From positions 7,539-71,538 of the forward strand of contig CANRFG010000002.1 in assembly GCA_947629815.1 (NCBI GenBank): a stretch of 64,000 bases of DNA, given 5' to 3'. Under the pieces are notes generated by a model, which had not been told where the DNA came from, did not search any database, and saw nothing but the letters and a program-made list of their open reading frames with translations. Source of the DNA: an uncultured Bacilli bacterium. Lineage in GTDB: Bacteria; Bacillota_I; Bacilli_A; RF39; UBA660. Of this stretch, positions 7,481 through 54,251 are shown one piece after another (positions within the stretch are counted from its first letter, which is position 1; each line of letters opens with the position of its first letter). Made by a program: the position numbers and the translations under genes.

Positions 7481-8091
7481 TGATAATGATTATAAATTAT
7501 CAATTAAAATTAGAAGAAATAATAAATGAAAATAAAGATAAATTACCAACATTACTTCTTCATAGTTGTTGTGGACCTTGTAGTAGTTATGTTTTAGAAT
7601 ACTTAAATAAATATTTTAAAATAACAATATTATATTATAATCCTAATATATATCCTTATGATGAATATAAAAAAAGACTTGATGAACAAGTAAGATTAAT
7701 AAATGAATTAAATGTTGAAAATAAAATAAGTATGCTAGAATGTAGTTACGATAATAACGAATATGAGAATGTAATAAAAGGTTTAGAAAACGAAAAAGAG
7801 GGTGGAAGCAGGTGTCATAAGTGTTATGAACTTAGATTAGAAAAAACTGCTAAACTAGCTAAGGAAAATAATTTTGATTATTTTTCTACTACATTAACTG
7901 TAAGCCCTTATAAAAATTCTCAAGTTTTAAATGAAATAGGTTCTAAATTAGAAAAAAAATATAATGTTAAATATTTATATTCTGATTTTAAGAAAAAAAA
8001 TGGATATAAGAGAAGTATAGAATTATCTAAAATATACAATTTATATAGACAAAATTATTGTGGTTGTATTTATTCAAAAAAAACGGATTAA
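7477..8091 (+). CDS. queH: epoxyqueuosine reductase QueH (DUF208)
   Basis: LLLHSCCGPCSSYVLEYL cysteine cluster and CGCIYS C-terminal motif typical of QueH; 204 aa. Confidence 0.85.
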   Translation: MMIMIINYQLKLEEIINENKDKLPTLLLHSCCGPCSSYVLEYLNKYFKITILYYNPNIYPYDEYKKRLDEQVRLINELNVENKISMLECSYDNNEYENVIKGLENEKEGGSRCHKCYELRLEKTAKLAKENNFDYFSTTLTVSPYKNSQVLNEIGSKLEKKYNVKYLYSDFKKKNGYKRSIELSKIYNLYRQNYCGCIYSKKTD

Positions 8092-8901: not shown

Positions 8902-9050
8902 ATTAATACCTCCATTTCCTAATATAGTTTATTAATTATGTTTAAATAATGTTATATAAAATGTCTAGTTTTTAAATTTTTATTTATGAATTGTTTAATT
9001 AATTTAAAATATGTGTTATTATATAAGAGTAGGTGAGTATATGAAAGGTA

Positions 9051-10198
9051 TTAAAAATACATATCGTGATTTAGATAAACCATTACTTTTTATTACAATC
9101 GGACTATTTATATTTGGTTTATTTAATATAGTAACTGCTTCTAGTAATGAAGCTGTTGAGAGATATGGTGTTTCTATATATTATTATTTTAGTAGACAAT
9201 TATTTATACTTTTTATAGGTTTTATAGCAAGTTTAATTATTTTTAAATTAAATACAAAAACTTATAAACCTCTTTTTACTGTTGCCTTTTTGGTTATTTC
9301 AGCTATTCTTTTTTATTTACTTTTATATGGTTCATTTAATAGAGGTGCAAAGAACTGGGTAAGTATTGGAGGATTTTCTTTTCAGCCTAGTGAATTTGCA
9401 AAACCAATTATAATAGTTTGTTTATCACTTATATTTGATAGTTTTTATAAAATTTTTAGAAATAAAAATAAAAAACATTATAATTTAATAGCTTTAGTAC
9501 TTTTTGTTGGTCTTATGTTACCAGCTATAATATTTTTACAAAAAGATTTAGGAACTATGTTTATAATGATTTGTATATTTTTAGTAATGTTTTTTGGAAG
9601 TCCAATACTAAGAGTAGAAAAAGTAAAAACTATTGGATTACTAGCAGTGCTTGGTCTTATAGCAGTATTAATGATGCAAGTAATTACAGGACATGTACTT
9701 AGTAATGCTCAACTTGCTCGTTTTAATTTTTTTAGTCCTTGCAGTAATTATGAAACAGGTGGTTATCAAACTTGTAATGGTTTTATTGCTATAAATAATG
9801 GTGGGCTTTTAGGTAGTGGTATTGGTAATAGTAAGCAGAAATATTCTTATATTCCAGAACCTCATACTGATATGGTATTTTCTATAATAGCTGAGGAGCA
9901 AGGCTTTATTAAAGGTTCTATTATTCTTATATTTATGTTTTATGTTGTTTACAGAATACTTAAAATATCTGCAAATGCTTCTACTATTAAAGGCAAATAT
10001 ATTTGTTTGGGGGTAGCATCGTATATATTTATGCATATGTTAGTCAATTTAGGTGGTATACTTGCTATTATGCCACTTACAGGTGTTCCTCTTCCTTTCT
10101 TAAGTTATGGTGGTTCGTTTACTTTATCGTTGATTGTTTCTTTAGCAATTGTTCAAAGAGTCAATATTGAAACAAGAAATCAAAAAATAAAAGTATAA
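9051..10198 (+). CDS. SEDS-family peptidoglycan glycosyltransferase (FtsW/RodA/SpoVE family)
   Basis: Polytopic membrane protein with the SEDS C-terminal signature (PLTGVPLPFLSYGGSF). The ATG at 9051 has RBS AGGTGAG; the listed 9011 start is less likely. Confidence 0.85.
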
Positions 10199-10306
10199 AT
10201 TTATTTAAAAATTTATATTTTTTATATAAATCTGTAAAGTGGATATGATAAAAGTGTAAAGTTTTATACTTTTTTTTCATTTTTTTAAAATTATGCCCCA
10301 AACCAC

Positions 10307-10340
10307 TTGACAAATGTCATGGGGGGGGGGGCATAATATA
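10307..10340 (+). promoter_or_regulatory. promoter of pilin-like gene 1: -35 TTGACA (10307-10312), spacer containing an 11-nt poly-G tract (10321-10331), -10-like CATAAT/TAATAT (10332-10339)
   Basis: Seen directly. The spacer length is 19 nt to CATAAT or 21 nt to TAATAT, set entirely by the G-run length. Confidence 0.55.
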
Positions 10341-10367
10341 AGTAAATAATAGAAAAGAGGAAGTAAA

Positions 10368-11444
10368 TTGAGAAAAGGTTTTACATTAGTAGAATTGTTA
10401 GCGGTAATAGTGATACTTGCAATAATAGCGTTAATAACAGTACCAATAATAATGAATGTGGTTGAATCATCAAAAAAAGGAGCAGTTAAAGAAAGCCCGC
10501 AAGAATGGTTTATATTTGAAGATAATAGTGATGGGACAGCAACAATAACAGGAGTATCTGATGTATGGAAAAATTTAGAGGATGAAAATAAATATGATAT
10601 AGCAATCCCTTCAAAATCAACTAATGGAAATAGTGTAACAACAATAGGAGAATATGCATTTAATGGAAACAATCTCACAAGTATTGTTATTCCAAAAAGT
10701 GTCACAACAATAGGAGGCTATGCATTTGAATATAATAATCTCACAAATTTAGTAATTCCAGATAATGTTATAACAATAGAAGATGGTGCATTTGAATATA
10801 ATAATCTTGAAAGTTTAGATTTAGGAAATGGAGTTCAGGCAATTGAAGGGTTTGCATTTTCTTTTAATAAACTCACAGGAGAGTTAGTAATTCCAAATAG
10901 TGTCACAACAATAGGAGCAGGTGCATTTGCTGATAATTTATTAACGAATTTAACAATACCAAAAAGTGTCACAACAATAGGTCCAATGGCATTTAATACA
11001 AATTTATTACCAGATGAACAAGCATTTATTTATAAAAGAAATGAAGATGGTACAGAGGATAAAACAACAATAGTAAGTTATGGTGGTAGTAAAAAAGATA
11101 TAAATATACCTAATAACACTATAATAATTGGATTAGGCGCATTTATGGGTAATAATCTCACAAGTGTAATAATTCCAAATAGTATTACAACAATAGGAGA
11201 TTCTGCATTTGAAGGTAACAATCTAACAAATATAATAATACCTGAAAATATTATAACAATAGAATCATATGCTTTTCGTAAAGATGACTATTCAAATCTA
11301 AATTTAACAAAAATAATAAATAAAACAGGAAAAGAATTTGACTGGGATGCAATTATAAATGGTTCAATTGGTAAAAACTATACATTTGTAAAAGGAACAG
11401 TAGAAAGTGATTATGGAAATGTAGAAGTAACAGATACTGAATAA
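10368..11444 (+). CDS. modular type IV pilin-like protein: prepilin N-terminal cleavage/methylation domain fused to BspA-type leucine-rich repeats (LRR_5); TTG start
   Basis: N-terminus RKGFTLVELLAVIVILAIIALITVPII is a class III signal / N-methylation motif. About ten repeats of the form TIGxxAFxxNNLTxxxIP follow. RBS AGAGGAAG precedes the start. Confidence 0.8.
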   Translation: MRKGFTLVELLAVIVILAIIALITVPIIMNVVESSKKGAVKESPQEWFIFEDNSDGTATITGVSDVWKNLEDENKYDIAIPSKSTNGNSVTTIGEYAFNGNNLTSIVIPKSVTTIGGYAFEYNNLTNLVIPDNVITIEDGAFEYNNLESLDLGNGVQAIEGFAFSFNKLTGELVIPNSVTTIGAGAFADNLLTNLTIPKSVTTIGPMAFNTNLLPDEQAFIYKRNEDGTEDKTTIVSYGGSKKDINIPNNTIIIGLGAFMGNNLTSVIIPNSITTIGDSAFEGNNLTNIIIPENIITIESYAFRKDDYSNLNLTKIINKTGKEFDWDAIINGSIGKNYTFVKGTVESDYGNVEVTDTE

Positions 11445-11451
11445 AAGATAG

Positions 11452-11481
11452 ACTATTGATTTTTAAATCAATAGTTTTTAT
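11452..11481 (+). terminator. intrinsic terminator (ACTATTGAT-ttttaa-ATCAATAGT + T5)
   Basis: 9-bp perfect stem followed by a T-run after the pilin 1 stop. Confidence 0.65.
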
Positions 11482-11570
11482 ATTTTATATTAATTTATAA
11501 AAAAGTTTTAAAAATGTATTTCTATGTATAAAATATGATATAATTAAATAAATACAGAAGGAGGATTTTT

Positions 11571-12953
11571 ATGTATTGTGAACAATGTGGAGAAAAATTA
11601 GAAAAAGATGCAGTTTTTTGTTCTAATTGTGGTGCTAAAGTAAATAAAGAAGAAATAAAAGAAGAAACTAAGCAAGAAACTAAAGAAGAAATTATCGAAA
11701 CAAAGGAAGAACAAGAAGAAAGTAGCGAAATAGTTAAAGAAAATAATAAAAGAGAAGAAGATTCAGTTTTAACTGAAGAAAACAAAGAAACAAAAGAAGA
11801 AATAAAAGAAGATGTAAAACAAAATACAACATCTAAAGAAGTAAAAAATAAAAAAAGTAAGAAACCACTTATAATTACTTTGATATCTATAGTTGGCGCT
11901 GTCATATTATTTGTTTTAGGATATTTCTTATATCAATTTATTGATTTATCTTCACCAATTAAAGAAGATTGGGGTCAAAAATATTACACTTATTTAAAAT
12001 CAGCAGAAGAAGATAAAAATATAGATATAAAATTACCAGAAGATTTAAAAAATTCTAAAATTGGATTTTATGAAATAAAAGGTTTAAATGAACCTATTAT
12101 GATAATAACATATGAAAAACAAAACAACAATTATATGAATATATATTATATAAAAGATAATGAAGTAAAAGTAATTGATTTTAATAATCCTACAAGTATA
12201 CAATTTTTGTATAATATAGAAGAAGATAACTATGACTATTATACATACACACTAAATAACAATAATGAAACCTATAAAAAAATAATTGATGAAATAAATG
12301 GAAGTTCTAAAGATTATACATTTAATGATGAAGAAAAAGATAGTGTAATAGATGTAAATGGAAATGAAATATACATTTTAAAAATGGATAAAACATTCAT
12401 AAAATTAAATACTCAAAATAATACATTAGATTATAATAATAATTTAAAAATAAAAGAATTAAAAAATTTAATTATCGATACAATTAAACAATATGAACCA
12501 CAAGATAAACTTATAAATGATGACATTAAAAACAAAGTTGAAGAAGAAAAGAAAACAGTTAATTCTAAAATAGAAGAAATAAAGAAAGCAGAAGAAGAAG
12601 TAGAAAAGAAAAAAGAAGAAGAACTAAAAAAAGGATACCAAGTTGGAAATGCAACACTTGCTTATGGAACATATAAATTTGATGTTAGTGACTTTAAAGA
12701 CTTAGGATTTAAAGAAGATGATGAGGTTTTAATTCTTAATGTAGATAAAACTTGTCATTATACAAGAAAATCAAATGTAGGTCAACCTATTGATACTGAT
12801 TGTACTTTTGAAAGTGATGATATACTAAATTCATTTGAATTTCAAAAGGGAATAAGCTTATATGATAAAGATGGAAATTTAATATATGGATTTATGGTAT
12901 ATCAAAATAATAGTTTAAGTGACCAATGGCATGGATTAAAGTTTAAAAATTAA
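11571..12953 (+). CDS. zinc-ribbon (CxxC-x14-CxxC) / Lys-Glu-rich linker / single-TM / extracytoplasmic-domain protein, unknown function
   Basis: N-terminus MYCEQCGEKLEKDAVFCSNCGAKV (zinc ribbon). A charged EK-rich segment follows, then a TM helix (PLIITLISIVGAVILFVLGYFLY) and a 330-aa external domain. A strong RBS GGAGGA precedes the start. Confidence 0.7.
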   Translation: MYCEQCGEKLEKDAVFCSNCGAKVNKEEIKEETKQETKEEIIETKEEQEESSEIVKENNKREEDSVLTEENKETKEEIKEDVKQNTTSKEVKNKKSKKPLIITLISIVGAVILFVLGYFLYQFIDLSSPIKEDWGQKYYTYLKSAEEDKNIDIKLPEDLKNSKIGFYEIKGLNEPIMIITYEKQNNNYMNIYYIKDNEVKVIDFNNPTSIQFLYNIEEDNYDYYTYTLNNNNETYKKIIDEINGSSKDYTFNDEEKDSVIDVNGNEIYILKMDKTFIKLNTQNNTLDYNNNLKIKELKNLIIDTIKQYEPQDKLINDDIKNKVEEEKKTVNSKIEEIKKAEEEVEKKKEEELKKGYQVGNATLAYGTYKFDVSDFKDLGFKEDDEVLILNVDKTCHYTRKSNVGQPIDTDCTFESDDILNSFEFQKGISLYDKDGNLIYGFMVYQNNSLSDQWHGLKFKN

Positions 12954-12982
12954 TATCTAGTAAAAAACTAGATATTTTTTTA
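12953..12982 (+). terminator. intrinsic terminator (ATATCTAGT-aaaaa-ACTAGATAT + T7)
   Basis: Perfect 9-bp stem overlapping the stop codon, followed by a T7 run. Confidence 0.65.
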
Positions 12983-13095
12983 TAATCTGTAAAGTGTATA
13001 TAATAAAAGTGTAAAGTTTTAAAAAGTATGTTATTTAATGATTGACAAATGTTATATAACGATAAATAATATAGATAATAGGAAAGAGGAAGTAA

Positions 13096-14388
13096 ATGAA
13101 AAAAGGATTTACATTAGTAGAATTATTAGCAGTAATAGTAATACTTGCAATAATAGCATTAATAACAGTACCAATAATAATGAATATAGTAGAATCATCA
13201 AGAAAGAGTTCTGCAACAGCATCAGCATATGGATACATTGATGGAGTAAAAATAATGTATGCAAAAGAAATGTTATCTGGAAGTGATTTTACATTAGATG
13301 GAAAATTTAATGTAGATGCTGAAGGTAAATTAGATGGACATAATGTAGAAGTAGAAGGAACAAAAGCAAAAGGTGGATATTTAACATATAGTGATGGAAA
13401 AATAACAGAAGGATGTTTAACAATAGGAGATTATAAAGTAACAATAGAAAATGATACTGCAAAAGAAACTGTAAAAGGAGCATGTGATAGTTCTTCAAAT
13501 GGCGATGAATCAGGAACAAATGTAGTATTTAATGATGGAAGAGAGATATATTTTAATGTTGATACAGGAGAAGAATGTACAGTAGAAGATTATGAAGCAG
13601 CAGGAGGACTAGAAGTACAAAGTAAAACAGGTAATAAACAAGGTTGTATGAAATTTTATGCATTTTTAGATAGTGAAGATTCTGAAACAGTTAATTTGCT
13701 ATTAGACCATAATACAACTGCAGAGGTAAAATGGAATTCAAGTCTAAATAATACTGAAGGTCCAAGTACAGAAGATGGTCAATTGTTATCTCAGTTAAAT
13801 AAAGATACAGAAAATTGGCATGGAACAGAAATACCAAAGAACTATTTAGCATCATGGGAATATGATAATCAAACATATAATTATACAGTAGACTATAGCA
13901 AATATAAAGCTCGATTAATAACAACTGAAGAAATTGCTAAAATTGTAAAAAAAGAAGAAAAAAAACTTGAAGAATTATGTGATGATTCATGCATTGATAG
14001 CTATGGCACATTTGATATAACAAATGGTGAGTATTGTGATAGTTACATTTATGATGATTCGGCTTCTGAGGTTTATTGTGTATCTCCTAATTTTGCTACT
14101 GGAGGTAATTATAATGGTGGTATCGTAACTTATGGATGGTTGTTTGATAATTTATCAATTGGTTCTGCTAGTTGTATAATTTATGGTTGTAAAAATGGAC
14201 AAATTGATGATTCATATAATTATTGGACGGCATCTCCTTATGTTTGTGAGTCGTATGTATATGATAATATTATTTATTATTCATGGGTAGTGTCTTACGA
14301 TGGTACTGCTAATAACAATAATATTGGAGGACTCGCAGGTATTCGCCCTGTTATTGAGGTTTCGAAATCTAAATTGTCTAATAGTTAA
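13096..14388 (+). CDS. modular type IV pilin-like protein 2: the same prepilin N-terminus fused to a Cys-rich C-terminal module
   Basis: N-terminus KKGFTLVELLAVIVILAIIALITVPII is nearly identical to pilin-like gene 1 (the first ~110 nt are about 89% identical at nucleotide level). The C-terminal 150 aa contain many Cys residues (CDDSCIDSYG..CDSYIYDD..YCVSPNF..CIIYGCKNGQ). Confidence 0.8.
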   Translation: MKKGFTLVELLAVIVILAIIALITVPIIMNIVESSRKSSATASAYGYIDGVKIMYAKEMLSGSDFTLDGKFNVDAEGKLDGHNVEVEGTKAKGGYLTYSDGKITEGCLTIGDYKVTIENDTAKETVKGACDSSSNGDESGTNVVFNDGREIYFNVDTGEECTVEDYEAAGGLEVQSKTGNKQGCMKFYAFLDSEDSETVNLLLDHNTTAEVKWNSSLNNTEGPSTEDGQLLSQLNKDTENWHGTEIPKNYLASWEYDNQTYNYTVDYSKYKARLITTEEIAKIVKKEEKKLEELCDDSCIDSYGTFDITNGEYCDSYIYDDSASEVYCVSPNFATGGNYNGGIVTYGWLFDNLSIGSASCIIYGCKNGQIDDSYNYWTASPYVCESYVYDNIIYYSWVVSYDGTANNNNIGGLAGIRPVIEVSKSKLSNS

Positions 14389-14508
14389 TAAAAAAAAGGT
14401 TAATACGTTAAGTGTTAACTTTTTTTATTAATTTGTATGAAAATAAAATTTTTTTATAAAAAGGAAATTGAATTTATATATAGTATTTTAATAATGAGGA
14501 GGTGAAAC

Positions 14509-15192
14509 ATGAAATATTACTTTGATAAATATAAAATTTATATTTTAGTTATAATTATATTAATATGTGGTTTTAGTATATTTATTTTTATAAATAATAA
14601 AAAAGTTAAAGTAGAAGAAAATATTAAAACAATAGAAAATAATACTTTTGAGCAAAATAAAGAAGAAGAAATAAAAACAGTAAAAGTAGATATTAAAGGA
14701 AGTATAAAACAACCTGGTTTATATGAAATGAATGAGAATGATAGAGTACAAGATGTAATAGAAAAAGCAGGTGGACTTACAGAAAATGCTGATGTTACTT
14801 TAATAAATTTAAGCAAAAAAGTAACAGATGAAATGATTATTAAAATATATAGTAAAGAAGAAATAAAAAACTACAAAAAAAATAATACAGAAACTATAAT
14901 AAAATATATTGAAACAGAATGTAATTGTCCTGATATTACAAATGATGCTTGTATAGATAATTCTGTAAATACTACAAACTCAACAAATACAAATACAAAT
15001 AATAAAATATCAATAAATAACGCTACAAAAGAACAATTAATTTCTATATCAGGTATAGGAGAATCAAAAGCAGAAGCAATAATAACTTATAGAAAAAATA
15101 ATGGACCATTTAAAAGTATAGAAGAAATAAAAAATGTAAGTGGAATAGGAGACTCTTTATTTGAAAAAATCAAAGATTTTATCACTATTTAA
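14509..15192 (+). CDS. comEA: competence protein ComEA (TM anchor, SLBB domain, tandem helix-hairpin-helix DNA-binding domain)
   Basis: SLBB motif KGSIKQPGLYEM..RVQDVIEKAGGL; C-terminal HhH motifs INNATKEQLISISGIGESKAEAIITYR and VSGIGDSLFEKI. Confidence 0.88.
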   Translation: MKYYFDKYKIYILVIIILICGFSIFIFINNKKVKVEENIKTIENNTFEQNKEEEIKTVKVDIKGSIKQPGLYEMNENDRVQDVIEKAGGLTENADVTLINLSKKVTDEMIIKIYSKEEIKNYKKNNTETIIKYIETECNCPDITNDACIDNSVNTTNSTNTNTNNKISINNATKEQLISISGIGESKAEAIITYRKNNGPFKSIEEIKNVSGIGDSLFEKIKDFITI

Positions 15193-17221
15193 AATATTAT
15201 TTTTATTATTAGTAATATTAAGAATAATATTTTCATTTACATTTGATAAACAAAGAGAAATACCAAATTATAATGTATTTAGAGGAGAAATATTAAGTAT
15301 TAAAATAGATGATGATAAAATAACTATTAAACTTAATTCTAAAGAAAAAATCATTGTAAATTATTATTTAAAAGAAAATGAAGATTACTCATATTTAAAA
15401 GTAGGAGACATTATAGAAGTAGAAGGAAATTTAGATTATCCAAGTGAAAATTCTAATTTTAATTTATTTAATTATAAAAATTATTTATTAAGTGAAAAAA
15501 TATATTTTACTTGTACTGCAACTAAAATTACCTTTATAAAAAATAGTAGTAATTTATTAATTAAAATGAAAAATTTTTTAATAGATTACATAAATAATTT
15601 TAAAAGTAAAAATTATTTATATACTTTTATATTAGGTGATAGTAGTACATTAGATACAAATGTAAAATCTTCCTTTCAAAATAATGGAATAAGTCATTTA
15701 TTTGCTGTATCAGGTATGCATATAACACTTATTTCTTCTATTTTTATATTTATTTTAAATAATTTCTTAAAAAATAAAAATACAAGTTATTTAATAACAA
15801 TAATATTTTTGTTTATATATTCATTTATTACAAATTTTTCTCCTTCTGTTTTAAGGTCGTTTTTACTATTTTTATTTATTTTTATTAATAATAAATATAA
15901 TTTAAAATTTAAAACTATTGAAATAATTATATTTATATTGTGTTTGTTATTATTATATAATCCATTTTATATTTATAATATAGGTTTTGTTTTTTCATTT
16001 ACAATTTCTATAGGTTTAATATATTTTTCAAAAAAAATAAACAATTTTAAAAACTATTTTTCTAAAATATTTATAACATCACTTATTTCTTTTTTATTAA
16101 GTATACCAATACTTATAAATAATTTTTTTGAAATTAATTTATTAACTCCATTTATAAATTTAATATTTGTACCACTTATTTCTATAATTATTTTTCCTTT
16201 TTCTTTAATAGTTTTATTTATACCATTATTGGATAATTTATTTTTAGTTATTGTAAGTATAATGGAAAATATATCATTGTTTATAAATAATTATTTTAAT
16301 TTAAGTATTGTATTAAAAAATATGAATTTAATAACAATATTTTTATATTATTTATTTATAATTTTAGTATTAAATAAATTTTTAAATAAAAGATACATAT
16401 ATATTATTCCAATTATAATTTTTATATTTGTATATTCAAATATAAATTATTTTAATAATACTACTAATATAACTATGATGGATGTAGGGCAAGGAGATTC
16501 AATATTTATTCAGTTACCTTACAATAAAGGAAATATTTTATTAGATACAGGAGGTATAGTAAGTTATTATGATAGTTATTCCATTACAGATAAAATAACT
16601 ATTCCATATTTAAAATCAGTTGGTGTTTATAAAATTGATTATTTAATATTAACTCATGGAGATTTTGACCATATGGGTGAAAGTATCAATTTAGTTTCTA
16701 ATTTTAAAGTAGAAAATGTAATATTTAATTGTGGTGAATACAATAATCTTGAAAAATCTCTAATTGAGGTATTAAATGAAAAGAAAATACCATATTATTC
16801 TTGTATTAAAAAATTAAATATTGAAAACAACGAATTTTATTTTTTAAATGATGGAAACTATGATAATGAGAATGATAATTCAAATGTTATATATACTGAA
16901 TTTAATAATTATAAATTTATTTTTATGGGAGACGCAAGTAGTAAAGTTGAAAATAATATTTTAAAAAAATATAGTTTAAGTGAAATAGATGTATTGAAAG
17001 TAGGACATCATGGAAGTAAAACAAGTAGCAGTAAACAATTTGTTAATAGCATTAGCCCTAAATATTCATTAATAAGTGTTGGGAAAAACAATAGGTATGG
17101 ACATCCAAATGAAGAAGTTTTAAATAATTTAGAAAGTTCAAAAATATATAGAACAGATTTAAATGGAAGTATATTATTTGAAATTAAAAATGGAAAATTA
17201 AAAATAAAAACATGTTTATAG
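15161..17221 (+). CDS. comEC: DNA internalization competence protein ComEC/Rec2 (polytopic channel plus C-terminal metallo-beta-lactamase domain)
   Basis: Competence domain (ISHLFAVSGMHITL) and an MBL domain (HGDFDHMGE, LKVGHHGSKTSSS). The TTG start overlaps comEA and has RBS AGGAG. Confidence 0.85.
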   Translation: MKKSKILSLFKILFLLLVILRIIFSFTFDKQREIPNYNVFRGEILSIKIDDDKITIKLNSKEKIIVNYYLKENEDYSYLKVGDIIEVEGNLDYPSENSNFNLFNYKNYLLSEKIYFTCTATKITFIKNSSNLLIKMKNFLIDYINNFKSKNYLYTFILGDSSTLDTNVKSSFQNNGISHLFAVSGMHITLISSIFIFILNNFLKNKNTSYLITIIFLFIYSFITNFSPSVLRSFLLFLFIFINNKYNLKFKTIEIIIFILCLLLLYNPFYIYNIGFVFSFTISIGLIYFSKKINNFKNYFSKIFITSLISFLLSIPILINNFFEINLLTPFINLIFVPLISIIIFPFSLIVLFIPLLDNLFLVIVSIMENISLFINNYFNLSIVLKNMNLITIFLYYLFIILVLNKFLNKRYIYIIPIIIFIFVYSNINYFNNTTNITMMDVGQGDSIFIQLPYNKGNILLDTGGIVSYYDSYSITDKITIPYLKSVGVYKIDYLILTHGDFDHMGESINLVSNFKVENVIFNCGEYNNLEKSLIEVLNEKKIPYYSCIKKLNIENNEFYFLNDGNYDNENDNSNVIYTEFNNYKFIFMGDASSKVENNILKKYSLSEIDVLKVGHHGSKTSSSKQFVNSISPKYSLISVGKNNRYGHPNEEVLNNLESSKIYRTDLNGSILFEIKNGKLKIKTCL

Positions 17222-29718: not shown

Positions 29719-30402
29719 ATGATAGAACAGTTCGAAAGATTAGAACTTCTTGTTGGACAAACTAAGTTAAAAAAAATATTTGATACAACTGTACTTGTTA
29801 TTGGTCTTGGTGGAGTTGGAAGCTATGCTGTTGAAGCATTAGTTCGTTCTGGTATTAAAAAGATTATATTAGTTGATTCAGATAAAATAGATATAACTAA
29901 TTTAAATAGGCAACTTATGACTAACTATAATAATATTGGAAAATATAAAGCAGAGGCCTTAAAAGAAAGAATAAAAACCATTAATAAATATATTGATGTT
30001 GAATGTATAAATGAATTTATTTCAAATGATAATATAGATAAATTATTTGATAGAAAAATTGATTATGTAATTGATGCTTGTGATACAGTAAATACTAAAA
30101 AAGAAATAATTAGAAAATGTGTTAAAAATAAAATTAAATTTATTTCAAGTATGGGCGTTGGAAATAAAATGAATTCTTCTAGATTAAAAATAGTTGATAT
30201 TAGAAAAACGAGTTATGACCCAATATCAAAAATAATTAGAAAAATGATAAAAGATGAAAAAATAAATAGTAAAGTCCCTGTTGTATTTAGTGATGAAATA
30301 CCTATTAAAGTAAAAGAAAAGATTGGTTCAAATTCATTTGTTCCTGCAACAGCAGGATTATTATGCGCAAGTTATGTAATAAATGATATTGTAAAGGATT
30401 GA
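29719..30402 (+). CDS. tcdA: tRNA threonylcarbamoyladenosine dehydratase TcdA (ThiF/MoeB E1-like fold)
   Basis: Rossmann GLGGVGS motif with NLNRQ; 227-aa TcdA/YrvM-type. Confidence 0.75.
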   Translation: MIEQFERLELLVGQTKLKKIFDTTVLVIGLGGVGSYAVEALVRSGIKKIILVDSDKIDITNLNRQLMTNYNNIGKYKAEALKERIKTINKYIDVECINEFISNDNIDKLFDRKIDYVIDACDTVNTKKEIIRKCVKNKIKFISSMGVGNKMNSSRLKIVDIRKTSYDPISKIIRKMIKDEKINSKVPVVFSDEIPIKVKEKIGSNSFVPATAGLLCASYVINDIVKD

Positions 30403-30406
30403 TAGT

Positions 30407-30943
30407 ATGAAACAAGATTTATACAATATAGCTAAATGTATAAGTGGTAGAGTTTTACTTATTGGTATAGAAGATGCAAATATTTTTGATATTATTAATT
30501 CTAATGATAAAATTTTAATTTGTGATTCATTAAATAATTTTAAATCTAAAAAAATGTATTGTGATAGTACTACTAAGTCTAATTCTAAAGTTATAAAAGT
30601 TAAAAAATTAAGAAAAGTTTTTAAAAAAAAGAATGTTGATTTTATTATTTGTAATATTTTGGAAATGAAAAAACATATGAAATCATTTTTAAGTGATAGT
30701 ATATATATAAATAGTAATATGCTTTATATTTATGGAAATGAAAATGATTTTGATTCTGAAGAATTAATAAGTAAATATAAACGATATTGTAATGATATAA
30801 AAATAGAAAAATTTGATGATAATTTTATTATATATATTGATAATAAAAATACAAAAACAAATAAAGTCAAAGATAAATTTTATTATGTAATTGATACTAT
30901 TTCTAATATTAGAAATATAATTGCTGATATTATAATGGGGTGA
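30407..30943 (+). CDS. hypothetical protein (178 aa)
   Basis: ORF tightly packed between tcdA and the third pilin-like gene; no recognisable domain. Confidence 0.5.
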   Translation: MKQDLYNIAKCISGRVLLIGIEDANIFDIINSNDKILICDSLNNFKSKKMYCDSTTKSNSKVIKVKKLRKVFKKKNVDFIICNILEMKKHMKSFLSDSIYINSNMLYIYGNENDFDSEELISKYKRYCNDIKIEKFDDNFIIYIDNKNTKTNKVKDKFYYVIDTISNIRNIIADIIMG

Positions 30944-30948
30944 ATTAA

Positions 30949-31824
30949 ATGAGAGAAAAAGGTTTTACATTAATTGAACTTGTTTGCGTTATATTGTTGC
31001 TGGCTATAATTATTTCTTTATCTACAATAGCTATTGTTAATGTTGTTCAAAACAGCAAAGAAAGAGAAAATAAAGCTTCTATGGAACTTATAAAGACTGC
31101 AGTAAATGATTATATTGATAAATATGAGAATGATTTTCATATAGAAAATGGTGTTACATATTGTATTGATGTACAGGATTTAATAGATGAAAATTTACTT
31201 ATTTCAAATATTAGTTATGATGGAGAAAAAATAAACGAAAAAACTGTAAAAACAGAATATAACAATAATAATTATTCTTATAAACTAGATGATAAAGAAA
31301 CTTGTATGATTTCTGAAACTAAAAAATATGAAATTACTAATTTAGTTTCAAATGGTAGTTTTGAAAATGGAACAACAGATTGGTCAGGAGATGTAATGAC
31401 AATATCAGATGATACCTCATCTAGTGGTACAAAAAGTTTGTATATTAAAGATATAGATGAAAATCATAATTTTTGGTATACACAAACTATTAACAATATA
31501 TCTGTAGGTGATAAAATATACTATACCTTAAAGTCAAAAGTTTTAAACGGAAGATTTAATATTATTTTGGATGATGATAATGGTACTTCTTTACCAGCTA
31601 GGGAATCATCTGAATTTGTTAAAATTTCTAGTATTTATAGTTCAAAACATGATACCTTTAATGTTCAAGTAGGGTCATCCTATGCTGTTATTGGAGAGGG
31701 ATATATAGATGATGTTATAATTATAAATTTAACAGAAACATTTGGCGCAGGAAATGAACCTTCTAAAGATTGGTGTGATGAACACATAAATTATTTTGAT
31801 GGAACTACGGTTATTTATAAATAA
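30949..31824 (+). CDS. modular type IV pilin-like protein 3: prepilin N-terminus plus a CBM4/9/22-like carbohydrate-binding-type C-terminal module
   Basis: N-terminus REKGFTLIELVCVILLLAIIISL is a prepilin methylation motif. The C-terminal NGSFENGTTDWSG motif is characteristic of CBM_4_9-type beta-sandwich modules. Confidence 0.7.
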   Translation: MREKGFTLIELVCVILLLAIIISLSTIAIVNVVQNSKERENKASMELIKTAVNDYIDKYENDFHIENGVTYCIDVQDLIDENLLISNISYDGEKINEKTVKTEYNNNNYSYKLDDKETCMISETKKYEITNLVSNGSFENGTTDWSGDVMTISDDTSSSGTKSLYIKDIDENHNFWYTQTINNISVGDKIYYTLKSKVLNGRFNIILDDDNGTSLPARESSEFVKISSIYSSKHDTFNVQVGSSYAVIGEGYIDDVIIINLTETFGAGNEPSKDWCDEHINYFDGTTVIYK

Positions 31825-33838: not shown

Positions 33839-34240
33839 TTAATTGATAATATAACTTTTTTCAATATATTTTTGTATTTTATTTTCACTTATAGGATAAA
33901 TAGTGGCAACATAATTATCCTTGTTCTTTTGCAAATTCAATTTAACAACAACGCATACATTTTCCTCTATTTTTTTAAAATAAAGTAAAGAATTTTTACA
34001 TTTATCATAATAAACAAAAAGTGGATTATTTATTATATTTTCAATGTTAGTTATTGCTTTATTATAATTATCTACGCTTGAAAATTCAGAAATGTGTTTT
34101 GTTATGTGTAAGTATAAATCTAATGATTGAACAATTGTTGTGTTTTTATAATCATATAATTTATATTTATCAATTATGTCATTTGAAATTACACCAACAA
34201 TTTTTTTTATTTGCTTTTTGCTCATATTAATCACCACCAT
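33839..34240 (-). CDS. hypothetical protein (133 aa)
   Basis: ORF with RBS GGTGGTGA, preceded by a 230-nt structured leader. Confidence 0.5.
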   Translation of the reverse strand: MVVINMSKKQIKKIVGVISNDIIDKYKLYDYKNTTIVQSLDLYLHITKHISEFSSVDNYNKAITNIENIINNPLFVYYDKCKNSLLYFKKIEENVCVVVKLNLQKNKDNYVATIYPISENKIQKYIEKSYIIN

Positions 34241-44725: not shown

Positions 44726-45712
44726 ATGATTTTAAAAAAATCCTTTACAAACTTACTAATTCTTCTAACATTATTTATTATTCCGATTAAAGCATCTGGT
44801 TATTCAGATTATCTAATAGTTGGAGGAGAAAATGTAGGTATCAAACTAAATTCTAAAGGTGTTATGGTAGTTGGACTATATACAATTAATAATATTTCTC
44901 CAGCAAAAGACGCAGGAATAAAAGTAGGGGATACTATAACAAGTATTAACGATAAAAAAGTATCCAATGTGTATGATATGACATCTCAAATATCAAAATA
45001 TGTTGATGAAACAATAAAAATTGGATATGTTAGAGATGACATAGAAAAATATGCAAATATAAAACTTGTAAAAACAGATAATGAATATAAAACAGGTATG
45101 TATATAAAAGATAATATAACAGGTATAGGAACACTTACATATATAGACCCTAATACAAAATTATTTGGTGCTTTAGGGCATGAAATAATTGAGAAAAATA
45201 CAAACAAAATATTAGATTCAAATAATGGTATAATATTTGATTCTACTGTTACAAGTATTAAATCAAGTACATCTGGAAATCCTGGAGAAAAAAACGCAAA
45301 ATTAGAACCTGATGATACTAAGGGAACTATTTTTGAAAATACAAGTCATGGAATATTTGGTAATTATACAGATACCTTACCAAATAAAAAATTATATAAA
45401 GTTGCTTCAATAGATGATATTAAAACAGGGGAGGCTAGTATATTTACTGTACTAGAAAACAAAGAAATAGGACAATATGATATCAATATTACAAATATAA
45501 ATAAAACTTCTAATAATACTAAAAATATACAATTTGAAATAACAGATGAAGAACTTTTAGAAAAAACAGGTGGAATTGTTCAAGGAATGAGTGGTTCACC
45601 AATAGTTCAAGGAGATTATATAGTTGGAGCTGTAACACATGTTATAATAGATAATCCAACAAATGGGTATGGAATATTTATAACTAATATGCTAGAAGAA
45701 GCAGAGAATTAA
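44726..45712 (+). CDS. spoIVB: SpoIVB peptidase (S55) with PDZ domain
   Basis: Signal peptide, PDZ region, and S55 catalytic motifs (GIGTLTYIDP..FGALGHEI, GIVQGMSGSPIV). Confidence 0.85.
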   Translation: MILKKSFTNLLILLTLFIIPIKASGYSDYLIVGGENVGIKLNSKGVMVVGLYTINNISPAKDAGIKVGDTITSINDKKVSNVYDMTSQISKYVDETIKIGYVRDDIEKYANIKLVKTDNEYKTGMYIKDNITGIGTLTYIDPNTKLFGALGHEIIEKNTNKILDSNNGIIFDSTVTSIKSSTSGNPGEKNAKLEPDDTKGTIFENTSHGIFGNYTDTLPNKKLYKVASIDDIKTGEASIFTVLENKEIGQYDINITNINKTSNNTKNIQFEITDEELLEKTGGIVQGMSGSPIVQGDYIVGAVTHVIIDNPTNGYGIFITNMLEEAEN

Positions 45713-45757
45713 GAGATTATTCTCTTTTTTCTTGTAAAAAAAATCTACTTATGTAGA

Positions 45758-46450
45758 TTAATTTTTAATTATGTCATTATATTCTTGTTCATCAATATAG
45801 TTGTATTCCCTCATTGCGCTTATAACATGTTTTTGTCTTTGATAAGCAAGTTCTGGATTAACATCTAATGAATATACAGATGGAGCATTTGGAATTCCTG
45901 CTAATAAAGATGCTTCATTTAAGTTAAGTTCAATTGGTTTCTTATTAAAATAACCTTTACTAGCAGAAGAAACACTATAATATCCACTTCCATAATAAAT
46001 AGTATTTATATATAATTCTAAAATTTCATTTTTACTTAAATTTTTTTCTAAATTATATGCCATAAACATTTCAGCAACTTTTCTAACCATTTTTTTCTCT
46101 TGAGTAAAATACATATTTTTTGCTAACTGCTGTGTAATAGAGCTACCACCTGTTACATAAGCTCCTTTTTTAACATTAGTAAATATTGCCTTTACAGTAG
46201 AAATTAAATCAACTCCATTATGAGTATAAAATCTATGGTCTTCAACTGCAACAATTGCTTCTTTAAAATATGGTGATACATCTTCTATTTTAGTATAATC
46301 ACTTTTACTTTTAATTTCATTTATTTTAATATCTAAAGGTGTTTCTTTAAGTACTTGTTTATATAAATTATATCCACTAATTAAAAAATAACCACATATA
46401 CAAATAAATACTAAAAACAAACTTAATATAATTGTTTTAATAACTTTCAT
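45758..46450 (-). CDS. monofunctional peptidoglycan glycosyltransferase (GT51 transglycosylase domain, membrane-anchored)
   Basis: GT51 motifs EDHRFYTHNGVD, GGSSITQQLAKN and INTIYYGSG. Confidence 0.82.
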   Translation of the reverse strand: MKVIKTIILSLFLVFICICGYFLISGYNLYKQVLKETPLDIKINEIKSKSDYTKIEDVSPYFKEAIVAVEDHRFYTHNGVDLISTVKAIFTNVKKGAYVTGGSSITQQLAKNMYFTQEKKMVRKVAEMFMAYNLEKNLSKNEILELYINTIYYGSGYYSVSSASKGYFNKKPIELNLNEASLLAGIPNAPSVYSLDVNPELAYQRQKHVISAMREYNYIDEQEYNDIIKN

Positions 46451-46481
46451 AAAACACCTTCTTTCATTAAATTAAAAAAGC

Positions 46482-46574
46482 CTATGGCCTAACAAATATA
46501 ATTGATATTACAAATGATGCTACAATAGCGAAAAGCATTAAATATATTACAATTTTTTGTGTCTTTGGTTTCAT
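46482..46574 (-). CDS. possible 30-aa membrane micro-peptide (MKPKTQKIVIYLMLFAIVASFVISIIFVRP)
   Basis: RBS GAGGTGAATTAC before the ATG; a single TM helix; not in the ORF track (below its length cutoff). Confidence 0.3.
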   Translation of the reverse strand: MKPKTQKIVIYLMLFAIVASFVISIIFVRP

Positions 46575-46663
46575 GTAATTCACCTCTAGTAATAATTATA
46601 ATATAAATTTTAATATTTTGGAATATTATTTTAAATTTTAAATAAGATTTATTAGGTGATTAA

Positions 46664-47293
46664 ATGAAAAAATATTTGGACAAGTTTAAAGGACTAATTA
46701 AATTAAACAAAAAAACACTACTTTTTTTTACTATTTTATTAATAATAGGAATATTATCAGGTTCTATATTTATGGCAATATTAAATGATACTGATAAACA
46801 ATTAATAAATGAATATTTTAATAATTTTATCTCTAATATTGAAAATAATAATTTGAATTATTTTGAAGCAATTAAAAATGGTTTATTTAATAACTTATTA
46901 TATATTTTAATTATATGGATATTAGGTATTTCAGTAATAGGTATTCCAATAGTAATATTAATGTTTTTTGTAAAAAGTTTTACTTTAGGTTTTTCTATTT
47001 CTAGTATAATATTTAATTATAAATTTAAAGGTTGTTTACTAAGTTTTATAAATATATTTCCACATCAAATACTTAATTTTTTAGTTTATATAATTCTTAC
47101 TACTTATTCTATTTTTCTTTCACTTAGAATAATAAATTCGATAATTAAAAAGAAAACAATAGATTTTAGAATGATAATGAATAAATACATTAAAGTATTA
47201 ATATTTTCAGTTATAGTAATTGTAATTTCTATTATTATAGAAGTATTTTTAACTCCAATTTTAATAAAGTTAATAATACCTTTTATAAAATAA
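46664..47293 (+). CDS. stage II sporulation protein M-like polytopic membrane protein
   Basis: 209 aa with five TM helices in a SpoIIM-like topology; weak similarity only. Confidence 0.45.
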   Translation: MKKYLDKFKGLIKLNKKTLLFFTILLIIGILSGSIFMAILNDTDKQLINEYFNNFISNIENNNLNYFEAIKNGLFNNLLYILIIWILGISVIGIPIVILMFFVKSFTLGFSISSIIFNYKFKGCLLSFINIFPHQILNFLVYIILTTYSIFLSLRIINSIIKKKTIDFRMIMNKYIKVLIFSVIVIVISIIIEVFLTPILIKLIIPFIK

Positions 47294-53348: not shown

Positions 53349-54251
53349 CTAATTTCCACCATGTGGGTGAAATGAATCATAATTTTCTTTTAATTTTTTA
53401 TTAGAAACATGTGTGTATATTTGTGTTGTTGAAATATTGGAGTGTCCTAGCATTTCTTGTATGCTTCTTAAATCAGCGCCACCATTTAGTAAATGTGTTG
53501 CGAAAGAATGTCTTAATGTATGTGGTGAAAAAGATGTTTCTATATTCTTTTCTTTAGCGATTGTTTTAAGTATTTTAAAAAATCCTTGTCTAGTCATTTT
53601 TTTGCCATGATTATTTAAAAATAAGTAATCATTATTTTCTTTTTTTATTAATAAATTTCTATACTCTTTTATATAAATATCTAAATAATATAAAGTGTAA
53701 TCTCCAAGTGGTATTATTCTTTCTTTAGAGCCTTTTCCAATTGTTCTTACAATACAATTTTCTAAATCTAAATCAGTTACTTTTAAATTAACGAGTTCAC
53801 TTACTCTAAGTCCTGTTCCATACATTAATTCTATCATTGCTTTATTTCTATAACTAAATTTATCTTTTAAATCAATATCTAATAGTTTTAAAACTTCTTC
53901 TTCACTTAATACTTTTGGAAGTGTTTTAGTTAATTTAGGAAGTTCCAAATCAAGTGATGGATTATTTTTAATATACTTTTCTATTATTAAAAACTTATAA
54001 AATGACCTTATAACAGATATGGAATGAGCAATTGATTTTTCTGTCAATTCATTTTTTTTCAAATATTTTAAATATTCTTTTATATCAGATGAATTTACTT
54101 CTTTTAAATAAATTTTTTGCTCTTTTAAATAGTCATAATATTTTTTTAGTTCCATTGTATATGAATCAACTGTATTGTTACTATACTTTTTATCTATTAA
54201 TAAATAGTTTTTATATTCTTCTATTTTATTAGTAAATTCTATATCATTCAT
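53349..54251 (-). CDS. tyrosine site-specific recombinase, XerC/XerD family
   Basis: Catalytic R..HxxR..Y region (LRHSFATHLLNGGADLRSIQEMLGHSNISTTQIYTHV). No flanking repeats or mobile-element cargo. Confidence 0.85.
   Translation of the reverse strand: MNDIEFTNKIEEYKNYLLIDKKYSNNTVDSYTMELKKYYDYLKEQKIYLKEVNSSDIKEYLKYLKKNELTEKSIAHSISVIRSFYKFLIIEKYIKNNPSLDLELPKLTKTLPKVLSEEEVLKLLDIDLKDKFSYRNKAMIELMYGTGLRVSELVNLKVTDLDLENCIVRTIGKGSKERIIPLGDYTLYYLDIYIKEYRNLLIKKENNDYLFLNNHGKKMTRQGFFKILKTIAKEKNIETSFSPHTLRHSFATHLLNGGADLRSIQEMLGHSNISTTQIYTHVSNKKLKENYDSFHPHGGN

Follow-up and report, generated by a model that had tools for sequence, protein, structure and literature searches.

Two pilin-type genes with a common 5′ region

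The genes considered here, pil1 and pil2, are a pair of pilin-type genes from an uncultured Bacilli bacterium, and they are treated together with the promoter G tract in front of one of them and the large protein family to which both belong. They lie in a 64,000-nucleotide (nt) stretch of contig CANRFG010000002.1, here called the window and numbered from its first letter. On the evidence of Pfam matches, pil1 (10368-11444, forward strand) encodes 358 amino acids (aa) from a TTG start, and pil2 (13096-14388, forward strand) encodes 430 aa. Between them is a gene for a zinc-ribbon protein with one transmembrane segment (Zn_Ribbon_1; 11571-12953, forward strand), and an earlier note on this DNA, made from its letters, was right in placing the two genes in direct orientation around that membrane protein. 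Beyond pil2 are comEA (14509-15192, forward; SLBB and HHH_3 matches) and comEC/rec2 (15161-17221, forward; Competence and Lactamase_B), with a third pilin-type gene, pil3, recognized by N_methyl, at 30949-31824 on the same strand.

The 5′ ends of pil1 and pil2 form a directly repeated cassette of 112 nt (10366-10477 and 13094-13205), the copies being 90% identical and 2728 nt apart. Over the first 108 nt of coding sequence an alignment count gives 11 differences, 8 of them G/A transitions, and the N-termini of both products are M(R/K)KG followed by FTLVELLAVIVILAIIALITVPIIMN, so that the near-identity of the two prepilin N-termini put forward in the earlier note is borne out. G at -1 and E at +5, the hallmarks of a prepilin peptidase site, are present in pil1 (MRKG/FTLVE) and pil2 (MKKG/FTLVE), and also in pil3 (MREKG/FTLIE), with N_methyl and TIGR02532 above their cutoffs.

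Resemblance extends into the non-coding DNA, again as had been claimed. A block at 10206-10266 is 84% identical to 12961-13021, with the core CTGTAAAGTGnATATnATAAAAGTGTAAAG, and contains a 38-nt element (AATCTGTAAAGTGGATATGATAAAAGTGTAAAGTTTTA; copy 1 at 10229-10266, forward, in which GTAAAG occurs twice, 22 nt apart; copy 2 at 12984-13021, forward, from the pil1/pil2 comparison). Both promoters have the -35 region TTGACAAATGT, and both genes the 5′ untranslated region (UTR) and ribosome binding site (RBS) ATAATAGrAAAGAGGAAGTAAAT, which for pil1 is TAAATAATAGAAAAGAGGAAGTAAA at 10343-10367, forward. The core, -35-region and UTR patterns had no chance occurrence in shuffles. The 38-nt element, possibly an activator site, has no further copy within the window; it is 100% identical upstream of a same-species paralogue, pilY, described below, and partial at two loci (L004 and L021; related loci and contigs are given by such numbers) of a rabbit-gut metagenome-assembled genome (MAG). 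For the upstream motif CTGTAAAGT / GTGTAAAG, a k-mer analysis of family promoters gave an enrichment of only about 5-fold, and elsewhere in the window the motif is not enriched; its absence upstream of comEA, as of other genes there, leaves the idea of a shared competence regulon unsupported. A riboswitch or leader RNA as the explanation for the conserved 5′ UTR is also without support, because an Rfam scan of 9800-14800 found no RNA family.

A homopolymeric tract in the pil1 promoter

Direct reading of the DNA upstream of pil1 gives a -35 hexamer, TTGACA (10307-10312, forward), and a -10 hexamer, CATAAT (10332-10337, forward), with a run of 11 Gs (G11; 10321-10331, forward) in the spacer between them as a candidate slipped-strand switch. 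The spacer is 19 nt with G11, and would be 18 with G10 and 17 with G9. The promoter of pil2, TTGACA-17 nt-AATAAT (13042-13070, forward; 11/12 consensus matches), is without a G tract, and a consensus promoter scan restricted to spacers of 16-18 nt finds it and misses that of pil1. No other run of 8 or more Gs occurs in the 64 kb, where shuffling leads one to expect 0.02 matches to an 8-G word.

Of the family's features the tract is the most distinctive, and it recurs. In two independent locus sets, with non-redundant open reading frames (ORFs) and scoring G≥7 within 250 nt upstream, such runs preceded 7/35 and 7/59 pilin-like ORFs (14/94) as against 0/306 and 0/399 other ORFs (0/705), and the runs are always of G on the coding strand. 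The -35/tract/-10 layout is found in at least nine independent family promoters; in another species the same TTGACA-8 nt-G11-CATAAT promoter drives a different pilin-type gene (L010), and tracts of G8-G11 are also at L013, L018, L034-36, L037/38, L052, L064, L071, L080, L095, L110 and L116. Where -35 and -10 hexamers are legible, long uninterrupted tracts go with spacers of 18-19 nt, and the G8 followed by A at one site (L095a) is in a spacer of 19; the interrupted tracts of L016 and L039, which are less slippery for being interrupted, are in spacers of exactly 17 nt. The promoter G tract is a recurrent feature specific to the pilin-type family, and the poly-G promoter of the earlier note is not only real in pil1 but has counterparts at family genes of other species.

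Among contigs with the pil1 promoter, the tract is G10 in L001 and G11 in L002, L029, L031 and the window, in an aligned promoter region that is otherwise identical, all from assemblies of about 3x coverage. As judged from its sequence the pil1 promoter layout is the anatomy of promoter-spacer phase variation, with direct evidence for switching limited to this single G10/G11 difference in low-coverage assemblies. When the G run was allowed to vary, the pil1/L010 promoter had no match in a scan of metagenome contigs of the Joint Genome Institute (JGI). The poly-G artefact of two-colour sequencing chemistry was considered and rejected, as the tracts are internal, conserved boxes flank them and they recur across independent assemblies. 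At L095 (1194 and 2482) there are two G-tract promoter copies about 1.3 kb apart, one G8 then A and the other G9, both with 19-nt spacers, which apparently precede tandem paralogues.

The -35 hexamer of pil1 is bracketed by a 10-bp inverted repeat, ATTATGCCCC (10290-10299) and GGGGCATAAT (10328-10337), on the forward strand, the right arm of which is the end of the G tract together with the -10 hexamer; TGACAAATGTCA, inside the repeat, is itself a small inverted repeat. That the arms delimit an invertible promoter was rejected: the segment is only 28 bp, to our knowledge too short for known invertases.

A bimodular pilin and a head-less derivative

The protein encoded by pil2 has an N_methyl match (E=4.3e-6) and a DUF6273 match that is sub-threshold. 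In its AlphaFold model, made with 48 homologues, a 54-residue α1 helix (residues 7-60) packs on a β sheet (69-127) at a predicted local distance difference test (pLDDT) score of about 90, after which come a low-confidence linker (133-142) and a separate Cys-rich module. Its parts are then the cassette (13094-13205 in the DNA), a pilin module (aa 1 to about 130), the linker (133-142) and a Cys-rich C-type-lectin-like module (about 143-430). Over α1 a profile of the pil2 family matches solved pilins, PilE1, MshA and PilA4 among them. By the model, pil2 is a true bimodular pilin, with a canonical pilin fold and an add-on C-type-lectin-like module, and its makeup of pilin module, linker and non-pilus domain is that by which modular pilins are defined (Raynaud et al. 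2021).

The product of pil1 is of another kind. Its N_methyl match (E=2.6e-6) is accompanied by LRR_5 (E=1e-49), in leucine-rich repeats (LRRs) of BspA type with a period of 66 nt in the gene; we take IPR026906 to be the entry for these repeats. In an AlphaFold2 model (pLDDT 92) a 29-residue helix (7-35) and a disordered segment (32-39) lead to an LRR solenoid from about 45 to 358, for which Foldseek returns BspA-type LRR surface proteins of gut bacteria and pneumococcal PcpA. The extended α1 of about 50 residues packed on a β-sheet head that is present in pil2 is absent from this model, and the extra module is borne on a truncated pilin part, signal peptide and shortened α1 together being aa 1-39. 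All ten of the closest homologues with N_methyl and LRR_5 that were examined retain a pilin head of about 90-110 aa. The nearest relatives, L004 (444 aa) and L021 (654 aa) of the rabbit-gut MAG, have a pil2-type pilin module 67% identical to pil2 1-136 joined to a pil1-type LRR 63% identical to pil1 40-358. Because its helix 7-35 runs straight into the LRR, some 100 aa short of all ten homologues, pil1 is a head-deleted derivative, with signal peptide and truncated α1 fused directly to a BspA-type LRR. This is not peculiar to one assembly: two metagenome contigs and the NCBI genome encode the same pil1 protein, and one further contig a one-residue variant.

Of the proposal that both genes encode modular pilins, the half that concerns pil2 stands, and pil1, without a globular pilin domain, departs from it. 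That the C-terminal modules are unrelated to each other, BspA-type LRR_5 in the one and Cys-rich and C-type-lectin-like in the other, and that neither is an ordinary pseudopilin domain, the pil2 module being separate from the pilin fold, agree with what had been read from the letters.

The third gene, pil3, had been credited with a prepilin N-terminus and a CBM4/9-like module. The former is sound (N_methyl E=6e-6); the latter is weak, CBM_4_9 scoring 17.8 bits (E=0.0045) where the cutoff is 25.9, with PF02018 present in some homologues of its C-terminal module, and the N-terminal DNA is unlike the cassette shared by pil1 and pil2. pil3 is in an operon with a TcdA/ThiF-like gene and an ORF of 178 aa (unit at 29719-31824). 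A relative has the three-gene unit in synteny on a scaffold of 1.09 Mb (L119, 8768-11179; ORF of 178-180 aa), and the pilin there, of 392 aa, has the N-terminal 41% of pil3 in common at 64% identity and a different C-terminal part.

A large family of separately transcribed genes

Taken alone, the window locus is an ordinary member of a large pilin-type family. Searching with pil2 gave at least 2,960 matches, mostly of 380-400 aa and collinear over 99% of pil2, and when the search was made exhaustive, 1,546 clusters (50% identity) scored E≤1e-30. Protein lengths in the family go from 166 aa to more than 2,170 aa, with diverse C-terminal parts, among them BspA-type LRRs, the C-type-lectin-like or Lcl-like domain, DUF6273, and Flg_new_2 with fn3, and modules are reshuffled, as in the pil2-type heads with pil1-type LRRs of L004 and L021. 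The pil2 C-terminal module is also found in proteins that are not pilins. A 32-nt cassette pattern with two free positions is matched exactly in 23 loci of MAGs recorded as uncultured Bacilli, ‘Mollicutes’ or ‘Tenericutes’, from rabbit, goat, human and other sources, with up to seven copies per MAG.

The genes are monocistronic, dispersed among housekeeping genes and never adjoin pilus machinery. Each family member is its own transcription unit, with an upstream element, a sigma-70-type promoter, a 5′ UTR and RBS, the cassette, usually a small head, and an exchangeable C-terminal module, and the family appears confined to a clade of uncultured gut Bacilli of very low GC. The central claim of the earlier note, of modular paralogues with a shared 5′ cassette and promoter and unrelated adhesin-like modules, is upheld by the Pfam, homologue and model evidence together.

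Mosaic 5′ regions among paralogues

Homologue searches and look-ups of exact proteins gave two further paralogues of the same species that bear on the question of exchange: pilX (P0005, 377 aa), with a pilin module and DUF6273, and pilY (P0120 and P0243; 512 and 513 aa), with a pilin module and LRR_5. Both are also in the NCBI genome that bears pil1, pil2 and pil3 on a 95,689-nt contig. In contig L031, pilY shares with pil1 a block of 253 bp (10221-10473) that is 100% identical and takes in the upstream element, the G11 promoter, the UTR and the cassette; the block ends abruptly on both sides, the flanking genes differ, and pilY begins MRKG in L031 as against MKKKG in the NCBI genome. The gene upstream of pilY in L031 (3-716) is by appearance a class B sortase, its TLSTC motif having been picked out by eye; no LPXTG-type signal was noticed in the family members examined. 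Between pil2 and pilX the promoters are 69% and the cassettes 94% identical, there are zero differences over 13234-13334 and 13343 to about 13425, and the C-terminal modules are unrelated. The pil2 of L027 carries two pilX-type single-nucleotide polymorphisms (SNPs). As judged by alignment, the 5′ regions of the four same-species paralogues are mosaics, a pattern that supports recent gene conversion or recombination among family members.

A more drastic junction is met in L026 (1-11108; ENA ERZ27249348 NODE_1103), in which ABC transporters, VTC, CotH and a 182-aa lipoprotein are followed by the pilX promoter and cassette leading into the pil2 body, comEA and comEC. The junction arose either in the genome, by rearrangement at the shared pilin module, or in assembly, as a chimera. 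The same sample also gives L001, with FtsW, pil1, the zinc-ribbon gene and the 5′ end of pil2. In L037 (291 kb) and L038 (63 kb), at about position 9697, the gene for an identical pil2-family protein (P0012) has DNA 99.9% identical downstream and unrelated DNA beyond about 300 nt upstream, the break being, like that of L026, 5′ of a pilin gene.

The earlier note had also foreseen a deletion or fusion by recombination between the direct repeats of pil1 and pil2. None was seen: the one spanning contig, L027, keeps the order of the window, and L001, L002 and L029 have the same upstream order and end at or just after the pil2 cassette. Several short contigs break at cassettes, L001, L027, L029 and L030 ending inside them and L002 about 80 nt beyond that of pil2. 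Its broader notion of cassette exchange survives in the mosaic 5′ ends, with the partners changed, the recent pairs being pil1 with pilY and pil2 with pilX, on other contigs.

Interpretation and alternatives

The reading we prefer, giving it a somewhat better than even chance, is of an adhesin repertoire on a pilin-type N-terminus, of which individual members would be turned on and off by promoter G tracts and brought into new combinations by recombination at the 5′ end. A prepilin peptidase encoded elsewhere would cut the family proteins, which would then be displayed at the surface as adhesins, either on a type IV or Com filament, at its tip, or at the membrane, anchored by the α1N helix. 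Slipped-strand mispairing at the G tract would alter the -35/-10 spacing of pil1 and of other members with tracts, G11 (19 nt) being predicted to be low or off and G9 (17 nt) on, with individual adhesins switched at random. At the conserved 5′ sequences, homologous recombination or gene conversion would carry promoters, cassettes and heads from one body to another, and so diversify which adhesin sits under which switch.

Much that weighs against this proposal comes together in three alternatives, two of which concern its mechanisms. One is that there is no active exchange, the likenesses being due to duplication, purifying selection, AT codon bias and shared regulatory sites, and the hybrid contigs to assembly artefacts. 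Exact matches to the 32-nt cassette pattern span 23 loci of many species, and protein constraint together with AT-biased codons can therefore account for much of the conservation of cassette DNA without exchange; the pil1 and pil2 cassettes, being only 90% identical and with 8 of their 11 differences in 108 nt at third codon positions, are not being homogenized; breaks inside cassettes are typical of assemblers at repeats; L026 can be a chimera because pil2 and pilX have exact shared stretches of 83-101 nt; and the expected deletion or fusion was not found. Purifying selection on a protein, however, accords poorly with 253 bp of identity between pil1 and pilY that includes non-coding DNA and ends abruptly, and to make L031 as a chimera an assembler would have to jump twice, the upstream context on the sortase side being different from that of pil1. 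The two forms of the pilY N-terminus, the pil2 and pilX heads that are closer to each other (in sub-blocks without a difference) than is the normally best-conserved cassette, and the two-SNP pilX-type patch in L027 also tell against it, and we regard an absence of exchange as rather improbable. A G tract that is a fixed regulatory or structural element, one arm of a C-run/G-run inverted repeat that binds a regulator or forms a cruciform, seems less probable again. In its favour, the ATTATGCCCC/GGGGCATAAT repeat (10290-10337), folded as single-stranded DNA, reaches -13.6 kcal/mol (z=-3.2 against shuffles); L010 and L034-36 likewise have a run of Cs before the -35 box and one of Gs after it; three species have G11 in a 19-nt spacer, which could be a selected functional state rather than an ‘off’ one; L034-36, three samples of one species, are all G9; and what length variation there is within the pil1 promoter comes down to one G10 against four G11s at 3x coverage. 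A fixed element is nevertheless hard to square with tracts that range from G6 to G11 across orthologous and paralogous promoters with conserved flanks, with the exact 17-nt spacing where tracts are interrupted, or with G10 and G11 on an otherwise identical promoter background. Uninterrupted runs of nine or more Gs are, as simple-sequence repeats, intrinsically hypermutable.

The third alternative concerns display, and is a serious rival because no machinery has been found, pil1 is head-less and some members are very large. Under it the class III signal peptide and α1N would be only an export and anchoring device for proteins that are never polymerized, and for most of the family ‘pilin’ would be the wrong name; archaeal substrates with class III signal peptides are a parallel as anchor-only surface adhesins. 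The earlier note had reported no pilus assembly genes in the window, and correctly: T2SSE, T2SSF and Peptidase_A24 are missing from about 50 ORFs scanned, and ComGC/GD/GE/GF models reach 16-27 bits against cutoffs of 49-80, at the N-terminus only, with no comG operon in the window. Neither PilB/ComGA, PilC/ComGB nor a prepilin peptidase is in the window, and none is near about 120 related loci (some 0.8 Mb, in a Walker-A scan). The sole Walker A match among those loci is a 721-aa non-pilin ORF with a transmembrane-like N-terminus, rejected as a PilB-type ATPase. Monocistronic genes scattered among housekeeping genes, the 29-residue helix of pil1 without the head that pilins use in filament contacts, members of 1,900 to more than 2,170 aa (one of 1,902) that would be awkward as filament subunits, and the occurrence of the C-type-lectin-like module in non-pilin proteins all point the same way. 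Yet most members, pil2 and all ten of the closest pil1 homologues examined among them, keep a confidently predicted head that an anchor has no need of, the α1 profile matches PilE1, MshA and PilA4, which polymerize, and the presence of comEA and comEC would imply Com-type machinery in the genome. The modular pilins of Streptococcus sanguinis do enter pili (PMC8179133). On balance, display apart from any pilus is possible and still clearly short of an even chance. For the head-bearing members, presentation at a pilus tip, by analogy with S. sanguinis, is plausible. A more ambitious version, which we hold to be doubtful, is a cell-walled counterpart of the variable lipoproteins of Mycoplasma: prepilin signal and α1N would be a universal ‘plug’ for a combinatorial and stochastic adhesin repertoire, with poly-G promoters settling which adhesin a given cell makes, recombination in the 5′ cassette giving switches and heads to other binding modules, and a Com-type or type IV filament bearing the chosen adhesin at its tip. 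If that were true, the specificity of a DNA-uptake or adhesion pilus would itself be phase-variable.

Genomic setting

The surroundings are those of a housekeeping region in a spore-forming Firmicute: the window has 19-27% GC and carries the genes for serine hydroxymethyltransferase (SHMT), several tRNA synthetases, MutS, NusB, SpoIVB, SpoIIM and LtaS. The SpoIVB peptidase and SpoIIM genes are at 44726-47293, and a relative's near-complete scaffold has only about 1.1 Mb, an indication that the genome is very small for a spore-former.

The location of the pilin genes next to comEA-comEC, to which the earlier note drew attention, is confirmed in the window and not conserved beyond it, a comEC end being nearby in one of about 118 other loci; the adjacency is probably incidental. 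The zinc-ribbon gene travels with the locus in L001, L002, L027, L029 and L030 and is absent at related loci, and nothing ties its product functionally to the flanking pilin-type genes; the protein is of 457 aa in L002 (4156-5529), from one sample, as against 460 aa in the window. On the other side of pil1 an FtsW/RodA-family gene (9011-10198) adjoins, as such a gene also adjoins a pilin-type gene at the unrelated loci L005, L016, L023 and L074 in varying orientation, which could be chance or weak synteny. Further upstream, the QueH gene (7649-7966) has about 100 mismatches in 318 nt to L029 (1-318), and the next 5 kb are nearly identical, a pattern suggestive of a recombination tract or of the boundary of a strain-specific allele. 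A small ORF on the reverse strand (33839-34240) has a PBECR3 match (E=4e-15), to a phage-Barnase-EndoU-ColicinE5/D-RelE-like nuclease, and is possibly a toxin module, isolated among housekeeping genes.

Relationship to known systems

Modular pilins are widespread, with IPR026906 among the 15 commonest of their architectures, and in S. sanguinis PilB carries a vWA module and PilC a lectin module (Raynaud et al. 2021, PMC8179133). pil2 is like these in combining a class III signal peptide and small pilin module with a short linker and a non-pilus binding domain. What differs is that there is no pil operon here and that the family is large and dispersed, with promoters of its own, some of them with G tracts, and with a member, pil1, that has no pilin module.

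In the position of its repeat, between -35 and -10, pil1 has the layout of phase variation by promoter simple-sequence repeats of the vlp, vmm and opc type. The vlp genes have near-identical promoters, 5′ UTRs and signal peptides, followed by divergent external regions. ON/OFF switching is due to a homopolymer in the vlp promoters of Mycoplasma hyorhinis and to a dinucleotide repeat in the promoter spacer of M. mycoides vmm (PMC10502178). As with the pil family, those systems consist of several separately transcribed surface-protein genes, and the records of several related MAGs class them as Mollicutes or Tenericutes. The distinctions are that vlp has a lipoprotein (class II) signal peptide and poly-A where the pil family has a prepilin (class III) one and poly-G, that Vlp external regions are simple repeats and those of the pil family folded adhesin domains, and that vlp and vmm switching has been shown by experiment whereas the pil family is known here from sequence alone.

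Two systems that generate variant pilins by rearrangement also invite comparison. In the R64/IncI shufflon, PilV has a constant N-terminal pilin part to which alternative C-terminal adhesin segments are joined by DNA rearrangement (PMC9881135). A shufflon has the recombinase Rci and inverted sfx repeats in one gene, whereas complete genes in direct orientation are involved here; no significant inverted repeat joins the pil1 and pil2 copies, there is no inverted cassette in the window, and the only tyrosine recombinase there, at 53349-54251, is Xer-like and 40 kb away. The locus is not a shufflon, because it has no inverted segments and no adjacent recombinase. In Neisseria, recombination between paralogous copies diversifies pilin genes (pilE/pilS), the pilS copies being silent, promoterless partial genes that donate to one expression locus, and poly-G switches pilC through a tract in its coding sequence. 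By contrast, every copy seen in the pil family has a promoter, RBS and start codon, and the G tract of pil1 is in a promoter spacer and not in coding sequence; since tblastn found no silent partial cassettes in the window, the locus is not of the pilE/pilS kind. Legionella Lcl, C-type-lectin-fold adhesins, PcpA and BspA-type LRR proteins have other anchors, being attached by a collagen-like stalk, choline-binding repeats, or a lipoprotein or Sec signal. Searches of the literature turned up no account of a modular-pilin family in Gram-positive gut bacteria that is both phase-variable and recombining. Each mechanistic ingredient is already known elsewhere, and what would be new is the combination in one pilin family.

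Implications

The family has complete modular pilins and a derivative without a head side by side in one genome, and about 1,500 clusters of one architecture, and is a natural test set for how type IV filaments display bulky modules. If the proposal of a switched and reassorted adhesin repertoire is correct, a large group of gut and rumen Bacilli that has hardly been studied would vary its adhesins by homopolymer promoter switching in combination with pilin-gene recombination, and surface variation in the style of Mycoplasma would extend to relatives that have cell walls and form spores and, among Gram-positive bacteria, to proteins of the type IV pilin kind.

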